The position numbers and the translations under genes were made by a program. This document shows, piece by piece, positions 28,291 to 42,443 of a stretch of 64,000 bases of DNA. The first letter of the stretch is position 1. Each line of letters starts with the position of its first letter. Under the pieces are notes generated by a model. The model made no database searches, was not told the DNA's origin, and worked only from the letters and a program-made list of their open reading frames with translations. The stretch comes from Dictyostelium discoideum (lineage: Eukaryota): positions 4,096,001 through 4,160,000 of the forward strand of contig CM000154.2 in the NCBI GenBank assembly GCA_000004695.1, written 5' to 3'.

Positions 28291-29405
28291 TGACTTTATT
28301 ACCAAATTATTTATATAAAAATATTTTAATAGATTTAATAACATATATCTATAAACACAAAGTAATCAAATTTTTATGTGAAAAATCAATTGATTTTTTG
28401 TTGTTTATAAAAATAATGAAATAATTTTATATTCCACAGTTTCAAAAGATTGGTTTAATATAATTTCATCAAATTTACCACATTTAATTAATCATTATAG
28501 TTTTATTTTTTTTCACTTTCAAAAGTTATAAAAATTCTTCGAATCAAATTAATATAAATTATTTATTTCCTAAATTAAAATTAAATTATAATAATAATAA
28601 TGAAAAAAATAAAAAACTATTTTTAAATAGAATTAGTATAAATGACATGTTGAATATATATATGAATAATTCTGGTGAGGTTATTAAAGATGAGGATTTA
28701 AATTTAATTTTTGAAAAAATATCAAGTGATAAAACATTAAAAGAAATTCAGCTTAATCATGTTTGCGATTGTAGATGTAGTTGTTTTAAAGAAATTGGAT
28801 TAGATGTGGAATCATTTGGTAAAGCTATTGAAAAGTTACTGTCAGATTCAACTTTACTAAAATCAATTCGTTTGCTTCAGTTTACAACAGATTTAGATGA
28901 CTATATTATTAGAGGTTTAGTAAAATGTAAATCATTAAAAACACTATACATAAATGGTTATGATTATGATTCATTTAGTTTCCCATCAATAATTAATAAT
29001 ATACTATATTCAAATTCATCAATTAAACATATTATATTAGATTCTTATTCAAATGATGAGCTTGAAACTAATACAACCAATATTATAAATGGTTTGGATC
29101 AATTAATTGTCAAATCAGAGCTTGATATTACCACCAACATCAACAACAACATCAGCAATTTATTGGGTTACAGTGAAAGTTTTAATAATAATTTTGAATT
29201 TTATTCAATAACAATTACATTAAATTTTAATTTTTATAATTCTATTTTGAATTATTTAAAAAATTATAGTTTTAGAGTTAACGAATTCTTTTTAATATTT
29301 TCAAATCCTGAGAAATATCCAAAACATCACAAATTTACTCAATTTAAATTAAATAATTCTGTTATTAATAACAGAATTATGTTTTCTCATTTTAAATTTT
29401 TTTTT
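28291..29405 (+). pseudogene. Degenerate/truncated paralog of the downstream F-box-like gene (two frameshifts, about 600 aa internal deletion, no clean stop)
   Basis: 28291-28425 encodes MTLLPNYLYKNILIDLITYIYK..., nearly identical to the start of the 29686 gene, but hits a stop. Homology continues in a second frame (NNEIILYSTVSKDWFNII...) and then a third (FTFKSYKNSSNQININYLFP...MLNIYMNNSGEVIKDEDLNLIFEKISSDKTLKEIQLNHVCDCRCSCFKEIGLDVESFG...). The C-terminal 290 aa are still an intact ORF (28647..) but run into poly-T instead of the paralog's stop. Confidence 0.45.
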
Positions 29406-29685
29406 TTTTATTTTTTATTTTTTTTTTTCTGTTTTGTCTTGCAAGCCCGATTTTTTTTTTTTTTTTTTGAAAAGTTTAAAAAATCAAGTAAAAAAGCTTG
29501 GTTTTTTTTTTTTTTATAGAGATGACGTGGAGAAATTTCTTTATTTTCTTAAAAAACTTTTTTTTTATTTTATTTTATTTTATTTTATTTTTTTTATAAT
29601 AGATTTAACAAAATTTCATAAAAAAAAAAACACTATAATAGTTTTATTTTTTTCTTTTTTTTTTTTTTTCTTTTTCATTATCCAA

Positions 29686-30909
29686 ATGACTTTATTACCC
29701 AATTATTTATATAAAAATATATTAATAAATGTTATAACCTATCTATATAAAAATGAAACAATAAAAAAATTGTATAATCTTGGTATCAATAAATATAATA
29801 ATAATGAAATAATATTATATGCCACAGTTTCAAAAGATTGGTTTGATATTATCACATCAACATTACCACACTTTATTAATAAATATAATTTTGATATATT
29901 AAAGCCTTTAATTAATTTTAATGCTAATGAAAATGAACAAAATAATAATCAAAAATTAATTAAAACTCAAGATTTAAAATTCGCTAAAAAAACTTTATTT
30001 TTTTCTAAATATTTGGATTTATTAAATCCTACAACTCAACAAGAAAATGAAGTTGTAATTCAAGTTAATGCTGAAAATGAAGTTGTGAATCAAGCTAATG
30101 CTGAAAATGAAGTTAATAATGCAAATGATGTAATTGAAGTAAATTTAAAAGAAATTGAAGAAAAAAAACAAGAAAAAGAAAGTTTAGATTATTTTAAAAA
30201 TCTAGTACTTAGAGAATTTGATGTTGAAGAATCATGTAGAATCATTAATTCATTAAATCAATATACAGACAATTTTCGATTTTTTTTAAGTTTGGATAGA
30301 GAACATTTTGTTTATAATAAAATCCATACGATTACTGATAAAGAAACCTTAAAGAAAATTTTTTTCCTAAATTTAAATTGTGATTTTTTGGATGAATTAT
30401 CATTAAATAAATTTTTCAATTTAAATATTAGAAAGAAATCCTTTCAACATTTACCTGAAGAAGAATATAAATTTGAAAATTTCACTTTTAATTTCGTTTT
30501 TAAAAGCTTTAAAAATTCTTCAAATCAAATTAATTTAAATTATTTATTTCCAAATTTAAATTTTAATAATAATAATAATAATAATAATAATAGCAATAAT
30601 GATATCCAAAGTCCACAAACAAATAAAAAAGTTATTTTAAATAATATCAGTATAAATGATATGTTAAATATATATAATAACCCAAATGATAATAATAATA
30701 ATAATAATAATAATACTAACAATAACAATAACAATAACAATAACAACAATATTAATGTTGATAATGATAATAATAATAATGAAAACAATAATAATAATAA
30801 TAATGAAAATGATAATAATAATAATGATAATAATAATAATAACAATAATAATGTTGATCATGATAATAATAATATTAATATTATTAATCAAAATGATAAT
30901 AATAATGAA

Positions 30910-30987
<78 letters not shown>

Positions 30988-31567
30988 GAAAATGAAAATG
31001 AAAATGAAAATGAAAATGAAAATGAAAATGAAAATGAAAATGAAAATGAAAATGAAAATGATAATAATGAAAACAATAATATTATAAAAGACGAAGATTT
31101 AAATTTTATTTTTAATAAATTATCAAATGATCATACATTAAGAAAAATTGATATTAATCATATTTGTGATAAAGGTAGTTGTCGTTGCTTTGAAAAAAAT
31201 GGTTTAACATTAGAATCATTTGGTGACAAGATTGAAAAATTACTTTCAAGTTTAAAATCAGTTAAAACAACTAAATTATATTCATATTCGTCAAGATTAG
31301 ATGATTATATTATTAGAGGTTTATCAAATTGTAAATCATTAAAAACACTTTATTTAAGTGGTTATAATTTTGATTCTTTTGATTTTTCATCAATAATCGA
31401 TAGATTAATACTTTCAAATTCATCAATTAGTCATATTTTAATAGATTCTTATTTGGATGAGGAATTTGATCATTTAATGGAAATAACTAATATTACAAAT
31501 GCTTTACTTCGATTGGCAACAGATAGAGAAGAAAATACCAACAACTCTTCAGATTATAGTCAAAGTT

Positions 31568-31654
<87 letters not shown>

Positions 31655-31869
31655 TTAATAATTTTGAATTATATTCAATTACAATTCAATTAAATTTTAA
31701 ATATTATGATATTATTATTGATAATCTAAAAAACTATAATTATAGAGTTAAGGAATTCTTTTTAATATTTCAAACTTCTGGCAGAGAAAGAGAATCAGAA
31801 TATCGCCAAATTAAAGCAAATAACTCTGTTATCAATGTTTTCATTTTCACTGTTTTAACTGACGGATGA
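29686..31869 (+). CDS. F-box-like protein with a huge Asn-rich / (Glu-Asn)n low-complexity insert and an LRR-like C-terminal domain
   Basis: The true start is MTLLPNYLYKNILINVITYLYKNETIKKLYNLGINKYNNNEIILYATVSKDWFDII, matching the F-box pattern LPxxLxxxILxxL...VSKxW. The track ORF begins 250 nt earlier in poly-T. Includes (GAAAAT)n encoding (EN)14 and poly-N tracts. The C-terminus (...CRCFEKNGLTLESFG...LKTLYLSGYNFDSF...) is homologous to the 28647 ORF. Confidence 0.7.
30962..31066 (+). repeat. (GATAAT)n to (GAAAAT)n hexanucleotide repeat encoding DNDNDN(EN)14
   Basis: Read directly: gataat x4, then gaaaat x14. Confidence 0.95.
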
Positions 31870-33371: not shown

Positions 33372-36300
33372 TTATAAACTTGGACCTGAAGAATCACTAT
33401 TTGAATCTAAATCATCTTGGAATAAAGAAGAAACTGTTCTAGATTCATTTGTCCAAGCACGAGGTAAAACAGGTGAATAGGAAACACGATTAACTCTACT
33501 AAATCTTTTACTTCTTAAAGTTGATTTACCATCACCAATATAAGACATACTTGGTGAATCTGGTGGTGTTGGAATTGGACTTGGATTACTTGAACTTTTA
33601 CCAGATGAAGAATTTGAAGAGTTTGAAGTAGTATTATTATTACTATTGTTGTTGTTTAATTGACCACTTGAAGAATGATTAGATAATGGAATACCAGCAA
33701 AATTTGATAATGATCCACCCATTGATGGTGGTCTTTTAATTGGTGAAGCTGATGGTCTAGATGGCATAGTATTATGATGTGGTGTAACATTATTTGGTAG
33801 TGGTGGAGTATTAGAACTGACACCATTATTATTTGAAATTGGTCTCTTTGAAGTCATTGGACCAACGGTGTGAGCTCTTTCATGATTTGGTGATCTTGAA
33901 ACTTCAACAGTAGTATGTAAAACATTATCAATTGATTTGGTGGGAGTGGTAGATGGTGAAATTGGTGAACTTAGAGAAGTGGCTACTAAATTATTGTTGT
34001 TGGTTGTGCAAGTTGATTGAGTTGAATCGGTATCAGCATCACCACTATTATCACTTGAAATTGGTTTATTCTCTGGGTCAAATATATCGAAATAATTTAC
34101 AATCATAAAGGAATTAATTGGTAATAGTTCAGAGGCGAATGATCTGAAAAAGGTAGGAGCCCAACAAATTGCGATATTCTCTGGTGACATCATATTTACA
34201 TCCTTTTCCAAAGAGATTAAATGTAAGAGATGGAAAAGCTTCTTTATCATTTTACATTCTAAAGGTGAGAGTTGATCTATAATATCTTTGAGTGATTGTA
34301 TTATCTCTTCATTGGATGACTGTCTCATTGCTTGGAAGAAATATTCATGTAGATTTTCAGGGAAAATTGGATTTGGTAATTCACGGAAATAACTCTTTAA
34401 TACACCTGCCACTGTATCGACATCAACATTTTCTGCTTTTAGGTCAATATCTTCACCTGCTTCAAATCTAGTTTTAATTTTCTTCAATGCGGTTGCAGAT
34501 GCACAAGTTCTGAAAATACCAACAGATGAAATACCTTGTTCCATTAATAGATCGATCGAACGAGATACAAGTGGTGGTAACTCAATGGTGGAAGCATTGA
34601 TTTGAGCTTTATCAGTTAGGGTTACAGCACCACCAGTAGCACGACCAGGATATAATGGTCCCCTTGTTGGTCTTTTTGGTAAAGTTTGAAAGCCAGGATT
34701 TGAACTTTTAGTTGGTGTTGATGGTGGTCCAATTGGTGGTTTTTTAATAACACCAGCCAACGAACCGATTGAAGGTTGTTTTGTTGGAGTTAAACCACCA
34801 GAACTTGTATCGATTGGATGAATATTATTTGGATAATTGATTACGATTGAAGTTTGAATATCTTGAATTGTTTTTAAAATCTTTTCATGAGAACTACCAT
34901 TACTATCATTCTTTAAGATGGTTGAAATATCACTTAATGGTAATTGTAAGATGGTGAGTGATTTCTCGTTACGTCTAATTGAGCATTTAATCATTTTCAA
35001 AGCGGTATAAGAGAAATCATTACCATCGCATTTCAATGATTTCAAAGTTTGATTCTTCCAAAGGATTTTCGAGACAGCCAAAGCACCACTATCACCAACA
35101 CCATTTCCAGAGATATCAAGTTTGACCAATGATTGATTCTTTAGCAATGATAATAACAATGGCATTAAATCGCCCTTCAATTGATATTTACCACTACCAC
35201 TTGCCAATGAAAGTGATTCGATGGATGTATTATCATCGATCAAGTTTATCAATGCCTCTATTGCACGTGCTCTAAGTTTTGATTTTGTTTTAAAGTTACC
35301 ATCGATTGAAAGATGATGAAGATTTGAATTTGGATACATAATTTCACAAAGTTTAATGATACCACCATCACCAAGATCATTCTCTGATAAATCTACACTT
35401 GAACATTTCAATAATGATGTTGCAGGACTAAACAATAGTTTCAAATCATCTGGAGTGGTTTGAATTCTTGATAAATTTACAGTTTGTAAGTGTGACATTT
35501 GTTTGAAAAATGATAAGATATCAATTACACTCTCTTTGGTTGTAGTTGATTTATTACCACTAAAATCCAAAGTTTGAATCGATGATGATGATGTCTTTAA
35601 AAAACTATAAACTGGACTTGTATTACTCATTAATAATTGTTGTAATGCCGTTGCTTTCGATAAGAATTTACATAAACCATTTGTACCATAACTTTCTAAT
35701 TTATTGTTTGAAATATTCAAATGAGTCATTGATCCACATACTACATTATTCGCTGTTAAACATCCAAACATTGCCTCTAATCCTTTACCAGAACATGATG
35801 TATTTTCAATATTTAAATATGTTAATCCATTTGAAAATGTTTGAATACTTGATCCTAATGTTAAAATACCTTTATTCTTTTTTCATCATAATCATCATAA
35901 TCATCATTATTTATTATTATATTTTTTTATTATTGAAAGTTAATAAATTTATAAATTATAAAAACAATTTGTTTAATAAACAAAATTAACTTACTTCTAA
36001 TGAATTATTATTTAAATTAATATGTGATAAATGAAGAGCTTTATTTTCAGCAACATTTTGAAGTAAAGTTATTATTGGTTCTTTTGAAGCTTGACTATTT
36101 GTAATTGTTAATTGTTGTAGTGAGGAATTCTCTTTGAATACTTCTGCTAATAGGTTTAGATCTTCGTTTGATAATTTACCATTGGATTGAAATGATTGAA
36201 AGTATGTATTATAGGAGAGTGATAAAAGTATTGCTTTTAGATCTGTGAATGAGTATTGATAGATTTCCGCTAAATTAAATTCTCTAACTTGATTGAATGG

Positions 36301-36916
36301 ATATAGATTTTCGATATCCCAAAGTATTGATGATAATGGTTGTACACCTAAATGATCACAAACTGATCGATATGTAAGATTGAATGATCCACAACCTTGA
36401 ATATCTTTAAATGAGGTGGCTTGAAATATCGATGGTATTCTACTAGCTGGTGTAATGTTAAAAATAATGGTTTTACCAATTTTAATACCAGGAAATGTTG
36501 ACATTAATGTACCATACAATGTCTTCAATACCTCTGATGCATCTAAATTCATCTTCATAACATTTTGATTCTTAAATTTTATTGTAACATCATTCTCTGA
36601 TTGACTTGCTATCTCTGTAATTTCTAAATAATGATGTTCTGCTGATAACTAGTTATATAAATATATAAAAAAAAATAAAATAAAAAAACTATTATTATTA
36701 TCTATTGTTTTGAAAAAGTAAATGAATATGAATAACTGAGTGTACACTTACTTTTCCTTTTGAATCTGTAAATAAAAATATTCTATTACTTGATAAAATT
36801 AACGTTTTAATCTCTAACTTCTTTTTTTTTTCATTTAATATTGTAACTTTTGTAATTAATTTACCCTCTTCTTTTTTATTTGTTAAAATTGATTCAATAG
36901 TTTCTAAAGAAAACAA
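33372..36916 (-). CDS. RhoGAP-domain protein with CARMIL-like N-terminus (PH-like segment + RNI-type leucine-rich repeats); exons 36916..36752, 36648..35995, 35876..33372
   Basis: RhoGAP core GIFRTCASATALKKIKTRFEAGEDIDLKAENVDVDTVAGVLKSYFRELPNPIF carries the Arg finger. RNI-like LRRs: LDISGNGVGDSGALAVSKILWKNQTLKSLKCDGNDF, VDLSENDLGDGGIIKLCEIM. Splice junctions are all phase 0. GTAAGT donor at 36751 joins the acceptor ctAG at 36650-36649. GTAAGT donor at 35994 joins the acceptor AG at 35878-35877. Exon 1 (KLITKVTILNEKKKKLEIKTLILSSNRIFLFTDSKGK) plus the start of exon 2 looks PH-like. The track split this gene into three ORFs. Confidence 0.75.
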
Positions 36917-37802
36917 AAAAAAAAAACAAATTAATAAAAGAAGATAATTTAAAAATTTTTTAAAAAATTTTTAAAAAATAATTGTTCAGAATGTTTTTGT
37001 TTTTTTTTATTATTGTATTTTATTTATTTTTTATAATTACTTTTTTCAACTTGTGATAGGGAAACAGGTGTTGTCATTGTTTTATTTGCACTTTTTTCTT
37101 TTTGTTTTTTTTTTTTGTTTTTGTTTTTTTTTGTAATAATAAATAAATAATAAATAAATAAATAAATAAATAAATAATGAATAAATAAAATACAATATTA
37201 ATAAATACAAGATTAATAAATAAATATTATGTTACAGGTTTTTTTTTTTTTTTTATTTTTTTTTTTTTTTTATTTTTTCAAATGGTTATTGATAATTATT
37301 TGAATTAATTTTTTTTTTTAAAATCAATTTTTTTTTTTTTTATTTTTTTTTAATTTTATTTTTTTTTTTTATTTTATTTTATTTTTTTAAATTAATTTTC
37401 AAAAAAAAAAATTTTTTTTGGGGGAGCGCTTCTTGATTATTATCATAAAAATGGTTTAAAAAATATTTCTTTATTTTGAAAAATGTTTTTTGACCTTATA
37501 TTAATTGTGTTTTTTTTGAAAATTGTGTGAATATTTTTGGTGTTGTGTAAACTTTTTTAATTAATTTTTTATTTTTTATTTTATTTTTATTTTTTTTTTT
37601 TTGTCAAAGCATTTTTATTTTTGGGGGGTTTAAGATTATATCTTTTTTTATATCGAAAAAAAAAAAAAAAAATTGTGATCATAAAATCAATGGTTTGAAA
37701 AAATTTAATTATTTTTTTATTTTTTTTTATTTTTAAATTATAAAGTTGCTTTTACCAATGTTGATTGAAGAAATTATCATTGTAATTATTTTATTTTTTT
37801 TA

Positions 37803-37875: not shown

Positions 37876-38019
37876 TAACAAAAAATAAAAATTCAGGTCG
37901 GAAAATTTATTGAATATTTGGGATTTTTTTTTTGTTTTATCGTATTTTTTTTTTATTTTTTTTTATTTTTTTTTTGTTTTTCTACCCAAAATACGAGAAA
38001 TTTTTACCAAAAAAAAAAA

Positions 38020-39372
<1,353 letters not shown>

Positions 39373-39497: not shown

Positions 39498-42443
39498 TTA
39501 CTCATCATTTCCACCATTTTCTTCTTGGTTAGTGTTTTCATCACCACCTTGATTATTTTCATCACCACCTTGGTCATTTTCATTTCCTTGATTATTTTCA
39601 TCACCACCTTGATTATTTTCATCATTGCCTTGATTATTTTCACCACCATCTTGATCTTGGTTATTTTCATCACCACCTTGATTATTTTCATTATTGCCTT
39701 GATTATTTTCACTACCATCTTGATCTTGGTTATTTTCGCCACCATCTTGATTATTTTCACCACCATCTTGGTTATTTTCATCACCTTGATTATTTTCACC
39801 ATCACCATCTTGGTTATTTTCATCACCCCCTTGGTTATTTTGGTCACCATCTTGGTTATTTTCATCATTACCTTGATTATTTTCATCACCGTCTTGGTTA
39901 TTTTCATCACCGTCTTGGTTATTTTCATCACCATCTTGGTTATTATTTTCATCACCGTCTTGGTTATTATTTTCATCGTCACCTTGGTTATTATTTTCAT
40001 CACCCTCTTGGTTATTTTCATCACCGTCTTGGTTTTGTTCACCATCTTGGTTATTATTTTCATCACCATCTTGATTGTTTTCACCATCTTGATTATTTTC
40101 ACCACCATCTTGATTATTATTTTCATCACCATCTTGATTGTTTTCACCACCATCTTGATTATTTTCACCACCATCTTGATTATTATTTTCATCACCATCT
40201 TGATTATTATTTTCATCACCATCTTGATTGTTTTCACCACCATCTTGGTTATTTTCATCACCGTCTTGGTTTTGTTCACCATCTTGGTTATTATTTTCAT
40301 CACCATCTTGATTGTTTTCACCATCTTGATTATTTTCTCCATCTTGATTGTTTTCATCACCATCTTGGTTATTTTCACCATCTTGATTGTTTTCATCAAC
40401 ATCTTGGTTATTTTCATCACCTTGGTTATTTTCACCACCATCTTGGTTATCTTCACCACCATCTTGGTTATCTTCACCACCATCTTGGTTATCTTCACCA
40501 CCTTCTTGATTATTTTCACCACCATCTTGGTTATCTTCACCACCATCTTGGTTATTTTCACCACCATCTTGGTTATTTTCACCACCATCTTGGTTATTTT
40601 CACCATCTTGATTGTTTTCACCATCTTGATTATTTTCACCACCATCTTGGTTATTTTCGCCATTTTGATTATTTTCACCATCTTGATTGTTTTCACCACC
40701 ATCTTGGTTATTTTCATCACCATCTTGGTTGTTTTCACCACCATCTTGATTATTTTCACCACTATCTTGATTATTTTCACCACTATCTTGGTTGTTTTCA
40801 TCACCATCTTGATTGTTTTCACCACCATCTTGGTTATTTTCACCATCTTGGTTATTTTCACCATCATCTTGATTATTTTCACCACCATCTTGATTATTTT
40901 CACCACCATCTTGTTTATTTTCACCATCATCTTGATTGTTTTCACCACCATCTTGGTTATTTTCGCCATCTTGATTATTTTCACCACCATCTTGATTATT
41001 TTCACCACCATCTTGATTATTTTCACCATCTCGATTGTTTTCNNNNNNNNNNNNNNNNNNNNNNNNNNNNNNNNNNNNNNNNNNNNNNNNNNNNNNNNNN
41101 NNNNNNNNNNNNNNNNNNNNNNNNNNNNNNNNNNNNNNNNNNTCTTGGTTGTTTTCTCCATCTTGGTTGTTTTCTCCATCTTGATTATTTTCACCACCAT
41201 CTTGGTTATTTTCACCACCATCTTGGTTGTTTTCACCACCATCTTGATTATTTTCACCACCATCTTGGTTATTTTCACCACCATCTTGATTATTTTCACC
41301 ACCATCTTGATTATTTTCACCACTATCTTGGTTGTTTTCACCACCATCTTGGTTGTTTTCACCGTCTTGGTTATTTCCATGACCATCTTGGTTGTTTTCA
41401 CCACCATCTTGGTTGTTTTCACCACCATCTTGATTATTTTGATCACCTTGATTATTTTCACCACCTTGATTGTTTTCATCACCTTGATTATTTTCACCAC
41501 CTTGATTGTTTTCATCACCATTTTGATTGTTTTCACCATCTTGGTTATTTTCACCACCTTGATTATTTTCACCACCTTGATTGTTTTCATCCCTATTTTG
41601 ATTTTTGTTTTGGTCATCACCAGCTTGATTATTATTATTATTATTATTACTTTGATTATTATTTTCATCTTTTTTTGGTTCTTGTTTTTTAGGAATAATA
41701 CCAACTGATTGTGCAAAATTACTAATACCTGATCCGACAGCTTCAACACCCTCGTCAGCCAATTTACCACTTCCACCTCCAATTTTTTCCATTGTATCTG
41801 AGAAAATGGCACCTCCTGTAACAATCCTAATAGGGTTAAGAGCATCTGCAACTTTTCCACTTCCACCTCCCACTGTTTCAAAAATACCTGGTTTATCATT
41901 GGTATTGGTTGATGTTTTGGTTGGTGTTGTTGTGGAAGTGGTGGTAGTAGTAGTTGTTGGTTTTGGTGTTGTAGTTGTAGTTGTAGTTGTAGTTGGTGTT
42001 GGTGTTGGTGTTGGTGTTGGTGTTGGTGTTGGTGTTGGTGTTGGTGTTGCTTGAGGATCACCTGGGTTTGAACCAAATTGCTTTCTCTCATCATCAGTTA
42101 CTATAAATTTTTTATAATTATTATTTTTATTATTATTATTAGTAAATCTGATATATTTTGGATTATAATTATTATTTTTTAAAATATATTATAAAAATAC
42201 AAACATTTATAGGTATTATAAAACTTATCATCATTTGAAATTTTATCTTCAGTTTGTTTAATTTCTTTTTGAATATTTTCCAATTCGGCATTTCTCAAAT
42301 TTTCTTTTACACTTGGAACAATAGCGTTAAATACCGAACCAACCAAACCTCCAGAATTACTATGCCCATGATTTTTAACATCATCATATTTTTTCTTTAA
42401 TTCTGCAATTTTTTTATTATCCTCATCATCTAATATTATTAAA

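Follow-up and report, generated by a model that had tools for sequence, protein, structure and literature searches.

The locus considered here lies in a window of 64,000 nucleotides, the whole stretch of DNA that was analysed (positions 4,096,001 to 4,160,000 of contig CM000154.2, Dictyostelium discoideum assembly GCA_000004695.1; 22% GC), and raises the question of whether its large minus-strand gene joins a CARMIL-type N-terminus, consisting of a PH-like domain and ribonuclease-inhibitor (RNI)-type leucine-rich repeats (LRRs), to a RhoGAP domain, and whether such a fusion is new. A sequence-only reading had proposed the fusion and suggested comparing it with the annotated Dictyostelium gac genes. 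That comparison leads to gacW: the locus is almost certainly D. discoideum AX4 gacW (DDB_G0290439), whose product, the actin-regulating scaffold protein CARMIL-GAP, comprises PH, LRR, linker and RhoGAP regions followed by a tail bearing a capping protein interaction (CPI) motif. The fusion of CARMIL and RhoGAP is already known, being annotated as gacW and published in 2022.

The identification rests on an exact-sequence look-up, in which the 1115-residue translation matched XP_635754.1 / EAL62235.1, titled 'leucine-rich repeat-containing protein [Dictyostelium discoideum AX4]', and UniRef100_Q54G18, titled 'Rho GTPase-activating protein gacW'. DDB_G0290439 was characterised as CARMIL-GAP by Jung et al. 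(2022, J Cell Sci 135:jcs258704; PMC9270954), whose supplement equates CARMIL-GAP with gacW, DDB_G0290439 and Q54G18 and gives a sequence of 1115 amino acids running from MTTPVSLSQVEKK to SSGPSL. A whole-word literature search for 'gacW' returned nothing relevant besides this paper. The protein encoded here and the published one are identical over all 1115 residues and represent the same gene, differing only in the numbering used in the paper. No evidence contradicting the identification was found; two minor points may be noted. Some residue numbers in the paper stand one above the deposited sequence, residues 780, 841, 849 and 989 corresponding to R779, D840, N848 and R988 while 737 agrees, an offset that arises because most row numbers in Fig. 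S1 are one too high. In addition, the consensus Leu and Lys are missing from the CPI core, and its T and R stand one residue further apart.

The gene model consists of four exons, as follows (coordinates refer to the window).

33372..37077, minus strand: complete coding sequence of gacW / CARMIL-GAP; 4 exons, 1115 amino acids, TAA stop at 33374..33372
37041..37077, minus strand: exon 1; 37 nt, ATG at 37077, encoding MTTPVSLSQVEK and the first base of K13
36904..37040, minus strand: intron 1; 137 nt, GTAATT...TCTTTAG, phase 1, 9% GC
36752..36903, minus strand: exon 2; 152 nt
36649..36751, minus strand: intron 2; 103 nt, GTAAGT...AACTAG, phase 0, 16% GC
35995..36648, minus strand: exon 3; 654 nt
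35877..35994, minus strand: intron 3; 118 nt, GTAAGT...AAAAAG, phase 0, 12% GC
33372..35876, minus strand: exon 4; 2505 nt, stop codon included

The presence of a large minus-strand gene was borne out, and the open reading frames (ORFs) on that strand within 33372..37077 encode 799 (33372..35771), 190 (35986..36558) and 72 amino acids, with short segments of 9-16% GC lying between them. Each of the three introns begins with GT and ends with AG, and their GC content (9-16%) lies below that of the exons (18-35%; 28-33% for those flanking introns 2 and 3). Introns 2 and 3 agree exactly, in boundaries and phase, with those proposed in the sequence-only reading, including the intron 2 acceptor, whose AG belongs to an in-frame TAG when read on the minus strand. 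The 5' end of that proposal did not survive: its three-exon model began at 36916, where a TTG lies within the pyrimidine tract of intron 1, and overlooked the 37-nt first exon with its ATG at 37077, the start of the deposited protein. The N-terminus encoded by exon 1, MTTPVSLSQVEKK, is that of the deposited protein and of Fig. S1 (PMC9270954). Acceptors of intron 3 shifted by 1 or 7 nt were rejected, as they break the reading frame. Plus-strand ORFs within gacW (e.g. 35582..35989) were likewise set aside as low-complexity, AT-rich frames overlapping intron 3.

The four-exon model is settled because its spliced product of 1115 residues equals the deposited AX4 protein letter for letter; the predicted junctions thus follow from identity with a curated protein together with conservation among orthologues. 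In the four closest orthologues, the residues at the junctions, VEK/KTIES, SKGK/LSAE and NSLE/NKGIL (slashes marking the junctions), are conserved and free of gaps, and more distant orthologues show variation or short insertions and deletions at the first two. These data also bear on the alternative that the locus holds two genes, an upstream PH/LRR gene represented by the ORF beginning at 36558 and a downstream LRR-RhoGAP gene represented by that beginning at 35771. Prokaryote-style ORF calls on Logan contigs do list pieces of 190 and 798 amino acids apart from each other, but these are single-exon ORFs. Moreover, the two parts, once joined, give the curated AX4 protein, and the intron 3 junction is conserved in all orthologues. 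Intron 3 falls within a continuous LRR horseshoe, and the alignment of the joined protein to CARMIL1 is unbroken. In Clastostelium, PH, LRR and GAP are contained in a single ORF of a Trinity transcript, and full-length GFP-CARMIL-GAP rescues the null mutant (PMC9270954). Two separate genes are accordingly so improbable that they can be practically dismissed in favour of the single four-exon gacW gene.

The N-terminal half of the product forms the scaffold that had been read as CARMIL-like.

36496..37053, minus strand: N-terminal helix and CARMIL-type PH domain (aa 9-114), interrupted by introns 1 and 2; placed by Pfam, AlphaFold2 (AF2) and alignment to 4k17
34836..36282, minus strand: RNI-type LRR horseshoe and capping helices (aa 186-628), interrupted by intron 3; placed by AF2, Pfam LRR_6 and alignment to CARMIL1

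A Pfam scan of the joined protein, one of the checks that had been proposed, reported Carm_PH, LRR_6 and RhoGAP. The Carm_PH match (PF17888) covers aa 34-107 and, at 31.8 bits, exceeds the gathering cut-off of 26.4; the PH region aligns to 4k17 from residue 12. The AF2 model, which was built on an alignment of 11 orthologues only and has a mean pLDDT of 61 (70-90 over most of the PH/LRR region), places a helix at 9-21, seven strands of a PH sandwich across 26-97 and a further helix at 100-114, followed by the LRR, whose 15 beta-strands are spaced evenly from 186 to 592 and alternate with helices. Generic LRR proteins are clearly outscored: in phmmer searches of the PDB, aa 8-616 matched residues 1-668 of mouse CARMIL1 (4k17) and human CARMIL1 (9ec0) with E = 2.2e-54, while generic RNI-type proteins ranged from 1e-8 to 1e-5 (NLRP5 at about 1e-8), with ribonuclease inhibitor at about 1e-7. 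Similarly, CARMIL1 4k17 was the top Foldseek match in the PDB (E = 1.9e-30), compared with 3e-11 for ribonuclease inhibitor. The N-terminus is therefore specifically of CARMIL type rather than a generic LRR array devoid of a PH-like domain, and the horseshoe, of some 15-16 repeats, is contiguous with the PH domain. By analogy with other CARMILs, this PH-LRR unit would act as a targeting and autoregulatory scaffold.

The RhoGAP domain follows the linker, and all of the peptides quoted in the sequence-only reading (LDISGNGVGDSGALAVSKILWKNQTL, GIFR and VAGVLKSYFRELPNP) were found in the ORFs or in the spliced translation.

34140..34577, minus strand: RhoGAP domain (PF00620, Pfam aa 715-860), with helices reaching aa 879 (34083)
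34509..34511, minus strand: codon of the arginine finger R737 (GIFR), its position checked in the spliced translation

The domain scored 128.9 bits against PF00620 over profile positions 1-146 of 148, confirming the RhoGAP assignment with its GIFR arginine finger. In phmmer searches, aa 713-869 matched RhoGAP domains in the PDB with E values from 1e-20 to 1e-9 (best matches spanning aa 713-864), and AF2 predicts an all-helical GAP domain at 716-879 followed by a long, disordered tail at 888-1115, which is rich in Pro, Ser and Asn. The Pfam boundaries of 715-860 differ slightly from those of the published construct (715-858), and the arginine finger is residue 737 in both. R737, K775, R779 and N848 do not vary among 11 dictyostelid orthologues, the Lys, Arg and Asn residues constituting the switch-stabilising set. 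Experimentally, the GAP domain (715-858) pulls down Rac1a and RacE and stimulates GTP hydrolysis by Rac1a 5.8-fold, a value that falls to 1.7-fold with R737A (PMC9270954). These observations speak against the notion that the domain is a catalytically dead pseudo-GAP which merely binds Rac. No support for it was found, while the invariant catalytic residues, the match to the full-length Pfam profile and the R737-dependent stimulation in the published assay, by which it is refuted, make it vanishingly unlikely. The domain is thus best regarded as an active Rac GAP, and the statement in the earlier reading that CARMILs are not GAPs has been outdated for Dictyostelium since 2022: the gacW product represents a CARMIL isoform, CPI motif included, into which a GAP has been inserted (PMC9270954).

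At the cellular level, CARMIL-GAP has been localised to phagocytic cups and leading edges, and its knockout impairs phagocytosis as well as streaming during chemotaxis. The null mutant is rescued by full-length GFP-CARMIL-GAP, only partially by a version defective in the CPI motif and not at all by a GAP-dead version, indicating that GAP activity contributes more than binding of capping protein (CP) (PMC9270954). In the mechanism given by the literature, CARMIL-GAP and F-actin are concentrated together at leading edges and phagocytic cups; R737 enters the active site of Rac1a-GTP and speeds hydrolysis, so that Rac keeps cycling; the CPI motif binds CP via Arg 988; and the two activities, which full function requires, both serve phagocytosis and chemotactic streaming, with GAP activity playing the larger part.

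The proposed CARMIL-like N-terminus on a GAP domain was correct as an architecture and incomplete as a description, as a CPI motif is also present after the GAP domain.

33726..33779, minus strand: CPI core (aa 981-998, HHNTMPSRPSASPIKRPP); key Arg R988 at codon 33756..33758 (R989 in PMC9270954)

A GST-CPI fragment (963-1005) pulls down CP, and an R-to-E change abolishes this binding (PMC9270954). Set against the consensus used here, LxHxTxxRPKxxxxxxP, whose Arg is essential, PHHNTMPSRPSASPIKRPP has its R, its P and its distal P at matching positions; its H and T can be aligned only if an insertion of one residue is allowed. A strict CPI regular expression gave no match in the gacW product and matched the fish CARMIL1 controls; Pfam CARMIL_C (PF16000), present in the fish CARMIL1 matches, likewise gave no match in the gacW product, and a precomputed PF27087 annotation is common to both, although it was not reported by the Pfam scan run here. 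A second 'TxxRP' sequence, MTSKRP (aa 955-960), was rejected as an alternative CPI motif, lying outside the CP-binding fragment and lacking an upstream LxH. For the CARMIL-specific interaction (CSI) motif, which follows the CPI motif in CARMILs, no counterpart in CARMIL-GAP is described by Jung et al. In the alignment of the 11 orthologues, in which the GAP domain is nearly invariant, the CPI core with its Arg occurs only in D. discoideum, D. citrinum, D. dimigraforme and D. firmibasis. D. purpureum carries HNTMPSS..TKPP at this position, without the Arg, and no RP dipeptide is found in the tails of the more distant dictyostelid orthologues; alignment of these low-complexity tails is unreliable, and divergent CPI motifs in other species could be missed.

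This narrow distribution favours a reading in which the gacW product is in practice a Rac GAP, with the CARMIL-derived PH-LRR unit serving only to target or regulate it and CP regulation being a minor function of few species. The restriction of the CPI core and its Arg to four species, the lack of the Arg in D. purpureum and of an RP motif in the tails of the distant dictyostelids, the deviation of the core from consensus, and the lack of a CPI-like motif in the RhoGAP and PH-LRR proteins of Clastostelium and Tubulinea described below all agree with it, as do the absence of rescue by the GAP-dead protein and the partial rescue by the CPI mutant (PMC9270954). On the other hand, CP is pulled down by GST-CPI in an Arg-dependent manner (PMC9270954), the incomplete rescue by the CPI mutant implies that CP binding does contribute in D. 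discoideum, and the unreliable low-complexity alignment may hide divergent motifs. Such a GAP-first reading is consequently judged rather doubtful, and CARMIL-GAP is better described as a protein with both activities.

Between the scaffold and the GAP domain lies a region that differs from the corresponding part of other CARMILs.

34587..34829, minus strand: Pro/Thr/Ser-rich linker, predicted to be disordered (aa 631-711; pLDDT below 50)

At this position other CARMILs have a helical dimerisation (HD) domain of about 190 residues, in contrast to the disordered Pro/Thr-rich stretch of gacW. AF2, on the alignment of 11 sequences, predicts no HD domain after the LRR, giving only helices at 595-604 and 608-628 and then disorder, and the sequence match to the 1062-residue CARMIL1 chain of 9ec0 ends at about aa 612-616. 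Because only one 20-residue helix and a disordered linker separate LRR and GAP, the HD domain is probably absent from the gacW product. The HD of CARMIL-GAP was also called doubtful by its authors (PMC9270954).

A further conserved element lies near the C-terminus.

33420..33533, minus strand: basic C-terminal tail (aa 1063-1100, DGKSTLRSKRFSRVNRVSYSPVLPRAWTNESRTVSSLF), with invariant or near-invariant columns in 11 dictyostelid orthologues

Its core, DGKSTLRSKRFSRVNRVSYSPVLPRAW..SRTVSSLFQ, conforms to the pattern DGxxTLRSKRFSRVxRxSYSPVLPR...SRTVSSLFQ and is predicted to be disordered. Scored on a basic-hydrophobic scale, reportedly that of Brzeska et al. 2010, aa 1063-1100 form the sole peak of the disordered tail; all five dictyostelid orthologues that were checked show it too, the score being approximate. 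The element may be a membrane-binding site analogous to the MB/BH (membrane-binding/basic-hydrophobic) domain found in vertebrate CARMILs. Either membrane binding or regulation by phosphorylation may be its function; it was not characterised by Jung et al., who described the C-terminal region as one not present in CARMIL (PMC9270954).

A search for orthologues in other dictyostelids, as had been suggested, recovered PH-LRR-GAP proteins in D. citrinum, D. dimigraforme, D. firmibasis, D. purpureum, Polysphondylium violaceum, Acytostelium subglobosum and others. An accession in the supplement of PMC9270954 differs from that of the D. purpureum protein, XP_003289087.1 (P0005), by two transposed digits, and the two share the same defect; most likely it denotes this D. 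purpureum orthologue, and hence no D. discoideum paralogue. A HMMER search, run exhaustively over 1.84 billion representatives and followed by domain mapping and name look-up, extended the combination beyond Dictyostelia, where proteins with RhoGAP and CARMIL-type PH-LRR regions show 27-36% identity to the gacW product.

Relatives with RhoGAP and PH-LRR regions: P0022, P0024, P0025, P0031, P0032, P0046, P0047, P0049, P0052, P0056, P0058, P0064, P0067 and P0081

Clastostelium recurvatum (P0022, a Trinity transcript) keeps the gacW order PH-LRR-GAP, with about 170 residues between LRR and GAP, whereas the order is reversed to GAP-PH-LRR in Tubulinea. The GAP domain is N-terminal to PH-LRR in at least 13 representatives; Rhizamoeba, Pyxidicula and Nolandella (P0032/P0047/P0052) contribute transcripts to this set, and the GAP-first order is seen in several metagenome proteins. 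A contaminant or symbiont contig may be the source of the RefSeq entry XP_049850598.1, which bears the name 'gacW-like' and is assigned to the locust Schistocerca gregaria. Neither a CPI-like motif, sought with regular expressions for the CPI consensus, nor the dictyostelid C-terminal tail motif was found in the GAP-containing relatives outside the dictyostelids. Taken together, these distributions allow a tentative proposal, plausible though held with somewhat less than even confidence: the coupling of RhoGAP to a CARMIL PH-LRR would be old and widespread in Amoebozoa and exist in two orders, the CPI motif would have been gained late, or retained, in the D. discoideum clade only, and aa 1063-1100 would represent the element conserved in dictyostelid tails. 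If so, RhoGAP-CARMIL coupling would be no Dictyostelium oddity.

A Pfam scan of four neighbouring ORFs yielded no matches. Upstream of gacW, the divergent neighbour at 37918..39372 (plus strand) encodes about 450 residues from its first ATG, with several hydrophobic, membrane-like segments, a poly-Asn tail and no Pfam match. Beyond it, a long minus-strand ORF at 39498..41873 carries dozens of GGENNQD-like repeats and a run of 100 N bases at 41043..41142, presumably an assembly gap within the repeat array. On the other side lie the adjacent plus-strand ORFs 28647..29519 and 29434..31869, neither of which has a Pfam match; long tracts of poly-Asn and (NE)n occur in the latter. Their C-terminal regions are similar over about 250 residues (46% identity, E = 1e-66), and, judged from this similarity, the pair looks like a tandem duplication.

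As a discovery, the present analysis adds nothing, the architecture, the GAP activity on Rac1a, CP binding and the null phenotype having been published in 2022. Its value is that domain reading from raw sequence proved accurate and that the 5' end of the gene model was corrected. For specialists, the leads are the limited conservation of the CPI motif, the conserved C-terminal tail, the probably absent HD domain and the related amoebal fusions.

Among known systems, conventional RhoGAPs (ARHGAP35/p190, 3fk2 and 5irc; ARHGAP5; the chimaerins; ARHGAP1/p50RhoGAP) have the same fold and arginine finger, but unlike gacW they carry neither the CARMIL PH-LRR scaffold nor a CPI motif. Canonical CARMIL1 is 26-27% identical to the gacW product over about 670 columns, and both possess a non-canonical PH domain packed on an RNI-type LRR horseshoe. 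Canonical CARMILs, such as CARMIL p116 of Dictyostelium and Acanthamoeba and vertebrate CARMIL1-3/LRRC16A, also have in common with gacW a tail that is disordered and rich in Pro, in which a motif binding CP is built around an essential Arg; gacW differs from them in the RhoGAP domain inserted after the LRR, in its degenerate CPI motif and in its extra conserved C-terminal tail.

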